Virus record (IMG/VR): IMGVR_UViG_2526164604_000021
Length of the DNA: 6,757 nt
Source: a virus
Lineage: Duplodnaviria; Heunggongvirae; Uroviricota; Caudoviricetes
Strand: one strand, 5' to 3'
Within the stretch, counting starts at the first letter, position 1. Every line of letters starts with the position of its first letter. Positions 1-979 of the stretch are shown here, piece after piece. Made by a program: the position numbers and the translations under genes. A model generated the notes under the pieces. It saw only the letters and a program-made list of their open reading frames with translations, had not been told where the DNA came from and did not search any database.

Positions 1-975
1 TTACACATCATTAGTACCTTCCTTATTTTTTGACTGGGACAAATTTGGGACCGATGGGTTCAGGATCGAGTCTATTTGCCGTGCGTGTTCGGTAAGGTGA
101 TTAGGTGCAAGGTGAGCATATCGACGAACCATTTCGATAGACTCCCAGCCTCCCATTTCCTGTAACACTGACAACGGGACTCCGGCTTGAACCAGCCAAC
201 TTGCCCAGGTGTGTCTCAAGTCGTGAAATCTGAAATCATCAATACCAGCCCGTCTCAGCGCCGCTTTCCAGGCTGTGTTTGCGTCATACCGCATCTTCCT
301 TACTGTTGGCGCTTTCGTTCCGTCTGGTTTGGTACAGCTTTCCTTGTACACAAATACCCAACGGTGATGATTACCGATTTGTTTTTTCAATACGCGACAT
401 GCAGTATCATTCAGCGCAACGCCAATTGCGCGGTTTGATTTACTCTCTTCCGGGTTTATCCATGCCACCCGGCGCTGCATATCTATTTGTTGCCATTCAA
501 GGTTGATGATGTTCGAGCGTCTTAAGCCTGTTGCCAGTGCAAATTCAACAACAGACTTTAATGGCTCCGGACATTCATCAATCAGCCTTTGTGCTTCATG
601 GGGCTCCAGCCAGCGGATCCGTTTATTCTTTGGTTGAGGCACTTTAATAATTGGTGCCTTATCGAGCATTTTCCATTCACGCTCTGCGGCTCTTAGCAGG
701 GCCTTTATAAATGAAAGATGCGTAGCCTTCGTTGCAACGGACGCTGGTTTTGGCGTGTATTCTGGAACAGGTTTCCCTTTTTTTCTGCATGCTTCTGCCC
801 TGAGTTTCCAGTTTTCCTCATGACGCCGGTTCGTCATTTTCTGCATTGCTGAATAAATTTTTGATTCAGTAATGTCTCTTAGTTGCATTCCTGCGAAATG
901 TTGAAGCCAGAATCCGATCTGCTTTCCATTGAGCCTGTTTCTCTGCGCGACGTTCGCGGCGGCGTGTTTGTGCAT
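1..975 (-). CDS. Tyrosine recombinase (phage integrase), core-binding plus catalytic region. Probably 5'-truncated: codons 1-19 of the listed ORF are lambda N-gene sequence read out of frame, so integrase-derived sequence is about 1..918
   Basis: Translation carries the tyrosine-recombinase signature: ATGLRRSN (box I Arg), HDLRHTWAS (H-x-x-R-H box) and RYAHL (Tyr nucleophile). Stop codon TAA is complement of 1..3. The frame stays open across the junction at about 918/919, so the true start cannot be fixed from sequence alone. No arm-binding N-terminal domain of the size expected for this integrase class is present. Confidence 0.85.
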
Positions 976-979
976 CCAT
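866..979 (-). pseudogene. N: Antiterminator N remnant: ATG at 979..977, first 20 codons ([20 protein letters not shown]) intact, then 17 unrelated codons to a TGA at 868..866
   Basis: Minus-strand sequence 979..919 encodes the lambda N N-terminus exactly as I recall it. After this point the reading frame diverges and terminates, where lambda N continues for 107 aa in total. The listed 81-aa ORF 866..1111 is this frame extended upstream into the N leader. Confidence 0.8.

Follow-up and report, generated by a model that had tools for sequence, protein, structure and literature searches.

The start of a lambda-type N gene and the interior of a phage integrase gene lie directly against each other on the minus strand of the 6,757-bp stretch of DNA analyzed here (the window). 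This raises the question of how the two genes came to be joined, and what the shortened leftward unit can still do. Judged by its sequence, the window is the cut-down lambda-immunity prophage of E. coli O157:H7 named Sp1 in Sakai and CP-933H in EDL933. Positions 1..1400, with the junction included, were 100% identical to 214 complete O157:H7 chromosomes, where they lie beside a tRNA-Thr gene (thrW). Beyond position 1,400, the window was ~99.9% identical to TW14359, one indel excepted, and in that genome tRNA-Thr (thrW) is located 15 nt past the int stop codon at which the window starts. Published work has mapped Sp1 to thrW and lists Z0307-Z0316 as the CP-933H genes.

We then examined what remains of the prophage. 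Leftward from the immunity region, the minus strand carries cI, a decayed gene with an NYN domain, IS629, OL/PL, nutL, the start of N, and finally int, which terminates at base 1 of the window. The lambda-type cI repressor gene (3424..4137, minus strand) is intact, with Pfam matches to HTH_3 and Peptidase_S24. The insertion element IS629/IS1203 (1396..2705, minus strand) was recognized by its IS1203-family transposase annotation, its terminal repeats, and an Rfam match to the ALIL pseudoknot. It sits just upstream of OL, outside the junction and within the same decayed left operon region. Sp1 has no xis, Q, lysis, head, or tail/tail-shaft genes, its O gene is frameshifted, and its P gene is truncated. 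The outer ends of Sp1 are Sf/myovirus-like, with the integrase on the left and a baseplate-module gene, side tail fiber, assembly genes, and invertase on the right, while the middle part is lambda-like. Asadulghani et al. (2009) described Sp1 as a highly degraded lambdoid prophage that retains a repressor (scored '+') and Cro. Their Table 1 scores integration and replication as 'defective' and excision and general recombination as 'absent'. Circularization of Sp1 was undetected with or without mitomycin C, as were replication/amplification and packaging. A second published study found Sp1 excision to be absent under sulfamethoxazole-trimethoprim (SMX-TM). The original prediction had called the element a remnant locked in place because N is missing. 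The lock agrees with the reports that excision and circularization are undetected, but the reason given was too narrow, as many other genes are gone.

To place the joint, we aligned the window with lambda N, with the N gene of phage ev099, and with integrase homologs. The N start codon lies at 979-977 on the minus strand, and the first 20 codons (920..979), which encode the arginine-rich boxB-binding motif, are identical to those of lambda and ev099 N. In a base-by-base three-way comparison, the two parents have a single base in common at the joint, base 919 (G in the coding strand), which opens N codon 21 and closes int codon 82. From there on, starting at 918, the same strand carries the 3' 918 nt of an integrase gene of the SfIV/SfI/SfV/SfII/phi458 type. 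The predicted end of N homology at about 919, with integrase coding sequence continuing from it, was therefore correct to the base. Strict microhomology at the joint is 1 nt, and a slipped 5-nt repeat, AAAGC, flanks the joint on both sides at a distance of 2-3 nt. The BLAST E-values for the two arms were 0 or ~1e-130, well outside what chance would give.

The junction was found in 215 of 5,426 complete E. coli genomes and was 100% identical each time, while the remaining complete genomes matched only one half of the probe, either the integrase half or the N half. The identical copies in 215 complete genomes indicate that the junction is real and not an assembly artifact. An IS-mediated origin was considered and rejected, since the joint contains no IS sequence and is separated by 477 bp from the closest end of IS629. 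An Rfam scan gave no match at the junction or in the leader; its sole match was the ALIL pseudoknot within the IS element.

We next characterized the integrase fragment. Positions 1..918 (minus strand) encode codons 83-387 and the stop codon of an Sf-type, thrW-integrating tyrosine integrase, 99.4% identical to SfIV and 99.5% to phi458. The nucleotide identity of the retained int DNA to SfIV, SfI, SfV, SfII, and phi458 was 98.5-99.5%, with the BLAST match spanning 1..925. It was 98.5-99.4% for the four Sf phages over the retained 918 nt and 99.5% for phi458, whose int aligns over 1..919. The stub differs from the phage copies at only 3-5 sites, all synonymous, and residues 83-387 form a protein identical to that of SfIV. 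The catalytic domain is complete, with Pfam PF00589 matched over profile positions 1-171 of 172 (E 2.3e-47). In a family alignment, K242, H314, R317, W340, and Y349 were invariant and R215 nearly so, and all of them are present in the window. Three substitutions are specific to the int copy of the window and all are synonymous, which could hint at purifying selection, and these changes may predate the deletion. A test of selection by substitutions was uninformative, because the 3-5 synonymous differences cannot be dated relative to the deletion.

The integrases of the Sf phages have 387 aa and an adjacent excisionase gene, whereas the window lacks both residues 1-82 and xis. With the missing residues went the arm-binding domain, the beginning of the core-binding domain, and the nearly invariant residues W66, E69, K70, K73-L76, D79, and R82 of the family alignment. 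A homolog search returned 6,289 proteins at E <= 1e-20, and we examined lengths for the best 120, nearly all of which were 380-388 aa. None of these 120 alignments reached into the N-terminal 19 residues of the ORF in the window. Shorter database entries (324, 331, 343, and 351 aa) start at internal Met codons that precede residue 83, and they keep the W66...R82 segment that is lost in the window. Among the best 120 of the 6,289 homologs and the shorter entries that were aligned, none started at or after residue 83. RefSeq annotates window positions 1..921 as a pseudogene ('site-specific integrase, incomplete, missing N-terminus'). These findings agree with the prediction that the integrase has lost its 5' end. 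No excisionase gene lies beside the stub, which directly abuts the N remnant (N'); an excisionase or HTH gene overlapping the start of int is present in SfIV and in O157:H7 F8092B. Sf-type int copies in the chromosomes examined abut tRNA-Thr.

To locate the break relative to the protein domains, we predicted the full-length integrase with AlphaFold2 from a 16-sequence alignment. The mean pLDDT was 51, with the catalytic domain below 50. The three-dimensional coordinates were discarded for this low pLDDT, and we relied solely on the secondary structure predicted for the N-terminal half, where block pLDDT was 56-83. This half was predicted to contain a beta-beta-beta-alpha unit at residues 2-51, followed by helices at 59-72 and 77-89. 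Three beta-strands and a helix are the usual layout of an arm-binding domain. The predicted helices suggest that the break between residues 82 and 83 removed the arm-binding unit, the first core-binding helix, and half of the second, so that it would fall inside a helix of the core-binding domain, a placement of moderate local confidence. When the full-length integrase was searched against solved structures, the alignments (HP1 Int, XerA/C/D) were confined to the catalytic domain and the rear part of the core-binding domain, and the NCBIfam matches were Xer-type and all sub-threshold. Arm-less fragments of lambda Int (C65-type), which have been studied in vitro, retain a complete core-binding domain. 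The stub resembles them in having no N-terminal arm-binding domain and in keeping the catalytic domain. However, its break lies inside the core-binding domain, unlike in the C65-type fragments, which makes core-site binding by the stub doubtful.

The N remnant is likewise truncated, as had been predicted, and is not a naturally short allele. N homologs are 107-133 aa in length, and Pfam N36 matched residues 2-21 of N' (E 3.8e-10), covering 20 of the 35 profile positions. The predicted 37-aa peptide was confirmed as an open reading frame at 866..979 (minus strand), made of the 20 N codons and 17 out-of-frame int codons and ending in a TGA at 868-866. Residues 1-20 of N' match the N chains of the solved structures 1QFQ, 5LM7, and 6GOV. 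They are unchanged relative to the lambda N(1-22)-boxB peptide (1QFQ) and to N in the antitermination complexes (5LM7, 6GOV), and the cognate boxB is present in the window at 1137-1151, but N' differs from lambda N in adding 17 unrelated residues. The regions of lambda N that contact NusA and RNA polymerase lie within residues ~34-107. N' has nothing of N past residue 20, and the central and C-terminal regions are absent. Because the regions contacting NusA and RNA polymerase are missing, N' cannot antiterminate.

A second reading frame runs through the joint. The 324-aa integrase-frame ORF (1..975, minus strand) consists of 19 alternative-frame residues followed by Int residues 83-387. Translation of this ORF would begin at an ATG at 975, which is in the +1 frame and 4 nt past the N ATG. 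The Shine-Dalgarno sequence of N, AGGAG (987..991, minus strand; read from the sequence), is kept as in lambda and is spaced 7 nt from the N ATG and 11 nt from the ATG at 975. The probability of 19 stop-free codons in the +1 frame by chance is ~0.40, and in the lambda alignment the +1 frame is open over the same N codons in lambda itself. The original prediction had held a chimeric recombinase driven by the N leader to be formally possible. The frame is indeed open through the joint to the ATG at 975; a fusion of N to Int is not what it encodes, as the ORF has its own ATG in an alternative frame. The exact 324-aa sequence has been deposited as 'integrase' (ACI35897.1, ACT70165.1, and others) and occurs in 502 contigs. 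From its sequence, the product would lack the conserved DNA-binding parts. Nothing indicates any function of this ORF.

We compared the window with relatives that extend intact past the joint. The 44.85-kb genome of phi458 (OP434518) carries together a full 387-aa integrase of the same type and a lambda-type N. The breakpoints map to phi458 positions 979 and 8409, which implies that 7,429 bp are missing from the window. In phi458, this stretch contains int codons 1-82, the xis region, three accessory ORFs, the genes exo, bet, gam, and kil, a gene resembling ea10, the cIII region, and N codons 21-110. phi458 resembles the window in its integrase (99.5%), its lambda-type N (97.7% across the part kept in the window), and its lambda-type O/P (98.1%). 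It differs in that its immunity region is another one, its immunity and PL-proximal regions match the window only partly, and its tail-fiber region gave no match. In O55:H7 CB9615, a strain of the lineage from which O157:H7 arose, thrW is likewise occupied by a lambdoid prophage, a complete one whose arm reads int-xis-...-exo-bet-gam-kil-cIII-ral-sieB-N. This prophage was rejected as the direct ancestor, because its immunity region differs and its integrase is 68% identical, an identity low enough to make it a sibling at thrW. O157:H7 F8092B has a full-length integrase at thrW that is 99.7% identical to the window and diverges exactly at 919. It was rejected as an undeleted Sp1, because it belongs to a different, non-lambda prophage sharing the integrase alone. 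No direct undeleted ancestor of Sp1 was found among the genomes compared. The distance between the phi458 breakpoints and the full arm of CB9615 at thrW support the prediction that the early-left arm was lost by deletion.

The leftward control region upstream of the joint was found to be intact for PL, OL, nutL, and the N Shine-Dalgarno sequence, based on alignment to lambda and ev099 and a promoter scan. The PL promoter (1207..1235, minus strand) has a -35 box TTGACA at 1235-1230 and a -10 box GATACT at 1212-1207, separated by a 17-nt spacer. The operators OL1-OL3 lie at 1209-1269 (minus strand), as placed by the alignments and the lambda operator annotation, and OL1 has one change relative to lambda that is also in ev099. 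The position of nutL (1137..1167) corresponds to the lambda NutL annotation. Its boxB, GCCCTGAAGAAGGGC (1137-1151, minus strand), is identical to that of lambda, and its boxA, TGCTCTTA (1160-1167, minus strand), has its first base changed from C to T, as in ev099. Because the viable phage ev099 also carries the OL1 and boxA changes, these are natural alleles.

In lambda, the leftward terminators lie between N and the interior of int. This intervening DNA is gone from Sp1, which would allow the PL transcript to reach the int stub without N. A crude consensus scan, which is weak evidence, gave no minus-strand hit resembling a terminator within 1..1450, and nothing convincing as a terminator just past the int stop codon.

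Published expression data bear directly on this point. In strand-specific RNA-seq of EDL933 grown in LB with sulfamethoxazole/trimethoprim (SMX/TMP), Z0307, the int stub, was induced with a logFC of 6.4 (21 to 487). The same data gave a logFC of 7.7 for cII, 7.5 and 8.1 for O, 6.7 for P, and 6.0 and 5.3 for the tail-fiber genes, while cI (Z0309) was constitutive (0.5; adjacent gene 0.4). Mitomycin C was also reported to induce the residual early genes of Sp1 (Asadulghani et al. 2009). The predicted reading of PL into the integrase fragment on derepression is thus borne out in SOS-induced cultures, by the rise of Z0307 along with cII, O, and P and by the intact control elements. The RNA-seq quantifies annotated genes rather than 5' ends, and the induced Z0307 RNA probably starts at PL. 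The induction of both the int stub and the tail-fiber genes shows that neither early transcript needs N to reach the genes still present.

Taken together, the locus is very likely the product of a ~7.4-kb illegitimate deletion in a lambdoid prophage at thrW in the O157:H7 lineage, which left behind a leftward unit repressed by cI. A single event would be the most economical reading of the deletion. Using ~1 nt of microhomology, it would have joined N codon 20 (plus 1 nt) to int codon 83, removing the arm-binding domain, the first one-and-a-half core-binding helices, xis, the recombination genes, kil, the cIII region, and the rest of N. The unit that remains would be PL/OL, nutL, N', and then the int stub, under cI. 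As long as the prophage is repressed, cI expressed from PRM would hold PL off. Upon SOS induction, RecA-mediated cleavage of cI would let PL fire, and its transcript would run directly into the int stub with no need for N. The ribosome-binding site of N would then yield the 37-aa peptide, with the boxB-binding helix alone, and at best a little of the 324-aa arm-less integrase could be made from the ATG 4 nt further on. Neither product would antiterminate or excise Sp1, so that the element would stay fixed in the chromosome. Both products are probably inert.

Other accounts of how the joint arose fit the data less well. That int suffered no deletion, and that a naturally short integrase or N allele merely abuts its neighbor, would accord with the label 'integrase' given by GenBank submitters to the 324-aa ORF. 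This has virtually no chance of being correct, given that nearly all of the best 120 of 6,289 homologs have 380-388 aa and that the shorter entries examined start before residue 83. In addition, relatives with an identical protein run 82 codons further, and the lengths of N homologs (107-133 aa) and the match to 20 of 35 N36 positions speak against a short N. Alternatively, a larger deletion may have spanned two tandem prophages at thrW, an Sf-type myovirus followed by a lambda-type prophage, in which case the int and N stubs were never part of one genome. The Sf/myovirus-like character of both Sp1 ends around a lambda-like middle would fit such an origin, as would the known tandem stacking of prophages at thrW and the presence in F8092B of a non-lambda prophage with the same integrase at this site. 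However, phi458 unites this integrase, a lambda-type N, exo-bet-gam, and O-P in one viable phage, and a tandem origin needs more events, because the Sf-like right end must also be rejoined in the correct order. We therefore consider the tandem origin unlikely, and favor a single mosaic ancestor with two internal deletions, since the combination of genes exists in phi458. Either origin would lead to the sequence seen today.

The products of the leftward unit could also be more than the inert leftovers of a deletion. The 324-aa ORF might be a domesticated, SOS-inducible arm-less recombinase, or N' a functional boxB-binding factor, kept for a benefit to the host such as interference with Sf-type or lambda-type phages that enter the cell. 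In favor of this, the ORF is found intact and without differences in 215 genomes, its catalytic positions are all present, its residues 83-387 are identical to those of working phage integrases, the stub RNA is strongly induced, and residues 1-20 of N' match N chains of solved structures. However, O157:H7 is a young clonal lineage, so the identity across 215 genomes is uninformative on selection. The start codon and the 19 open codons are explained as a by-product of the N sequence, with a chance probability of ~0.4, and the ATG at 975, 11 nt from the Shine-Dalgarno sequence, has to compete with the N ATG at 7 nt. The conserved core-binding residues and the entire arm-binding domain are lost, excision and circularization of Sp1 are undetected in the literature, and RefSeq lists a pseudogene. 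Retention for host benefit is accordingly very improbable. There is similarly little chance, if slightly more, that the SOS-induced leftward transcript or its products have side effects on incoming phages or, as antisense, on thrW/proBA. As products, the Int(83-387) chimera or the N(1-20) peptide could hinder superinfecting Sf-type or lambda-type phages; as antisense, given that the scan predicted no terminator-like site in the int stub, read-through of thrW and proBA could change host physiology during the SOS response. In the published RNA-seq, proB and proA were ~8-fold down in the same sample, a fall that growth arrest explains equally well as antisense read-through. The deletion with a cI-repressed but inert unit remains our preferred reading.

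The truncation of int and the absence of excision and recombination genes in Sp1 are already known from published tables and from the RefSeq annotation. The published accounts of Sp1 defects examined here consist of table entries, in which the joint of N codon 20 to Int codon 83, its 1-nt microhomology, and the alternative-frame ORF are not spelled out. Our additions are small, namely the joint at base level, how much DNA was lost, and a connection to the Z0307 induction that others have reported. For annotation, the 19 N-terminal residues of the 324-aa 'integrase' records in GenBank are alternative-frame N, and the pseudogene call of RefSeq is better. The joint, for example as a 60-mer spanning 890-950, is also a clean lineage marker, since complete genomes contained it in its exact form only (215 of 5,426). 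For the biology of Sp1, the junction explains at base resolution why the prophage was scored as defective in integration and as having no excision. It also accounts for the strong induction of the int stub by SOS antibiotics, because the stub now lies directly under the still-functional cI/PL switch. Beyond annotation the feature matters little; it is an ordinary deletion scar.

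The reading frame that runs leftward across the N-integrase junction has been annotated inconsistently. In GenBank, the 324-aa ORF (window 1-975, minus strand) was named "integrase" (e.g., ACI35897.1 and ACT70165.1), but its N-terminal 19 residues were found to be N read in an alternative frame. RefSeq PGAP instead assigns pseudogene status to window 1..921. Also deposited is a sequence of 295 aa that may represent another version of this locus.

The PL transcript could extend beyond the integrase stub. The thrW and proA genes (positions 10543-11986 of the chromosomal locus L001) lie downstream of and antisense to this transcript, and a scan of the minus strand predicted no terminator-like site, either in window 1..1450 or from the integrase stop codon to proA. 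In the published RNA-seq sample in which the stub, Z0307, was induced, proB and proA were down (logFC -2.9 and -3.0). This drop could reflect antisense read-through of the PL transcript, but it could also be caused simply by growth arrest.

Rightward, a second deletion joint near 5865 fuses the replication gene P to a baseplate-module gene within window 5802-6113. The fusion is a single uninterrupted 103-aa ORF, to which P contributes about 21 codons. The remainder corresponds to the last ~82 aa of a baseplate-module protein that is 226 aa long, has a weak match to DUF2612 and is encoded by myoviruses such as vB_EcoM-611R5. The side tail-fibre gene comes immediately after the baseplate-module gene. 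Transcription from PR therefore continues into the tail-fibre genes, which were induced by SMX/TMP in the published RNA-seq (logFC 6.0 and 5.3). The replication gene O carries a 23-bp duplication of one ori iteron (window about 5277-5299), giving five iteron copies compared with four in phage ev099. Because of this duplication, the O frame is shifted and the gene is split into two ORFs (window 4883-5491 and 5293-5805).

Immediately upstream of OL lies an IS629/IS1203 element of 1,310 bp (window 1396-2705), at whose flanks a 3-bp target duplication was not found. Relative to ev099, 328 bp (L003 9481-9808) are absent beside the right end of the element, and the neighbouring gene has thereby lost its 3' end. 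In strain TW14359, another ~230 bp abutting this IS629 end (window 2713-2941) are also gone; thus, the IS-adjacent deletion is polymorphic among O157 strains. On the minus strand at window 2677-3296 is the remnant of an NYN-domain gene, whose C-terminal part matches PF01936. Both Sp1 and ev099 carry this gene at the position occupied by rexAB in lambda. In the window, a 1-nt deletion near 2839 disrupts the gene, which is also shortened by the IS-adjacent deletion. It corresponds to Z0308, which is transcribed with cI and was constitutive in the published RNA-seq. OL1 (window 1209-1225) has one G->A change, which is common to ev099. The window cI (3424-4137) differs from lambda cI at four residues.

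Other prophages were found at thrW. One O157:H7 strain, F8092B, is without the Sp1 junction; its thrW site is occupied by another prophage (L006 13152-27750) that is far more complete than Sp1 and in which the same integrase is full length (99.7% identity to the window copy) and adjoined by an HTH/excisionase-like gene. O55:H7 CB9615 carries an apparently complete lambdoid prophage (L007 17635-45001). Its integrase is 68% identical to that of Sp1 and its repressor/Cro pair is different; the N and O-P DNA is 96% identical and the cII protein has the same accession. The CB9615 prophage and Sp1 clearly illustrate how modules are exchanged at a single attachment site.
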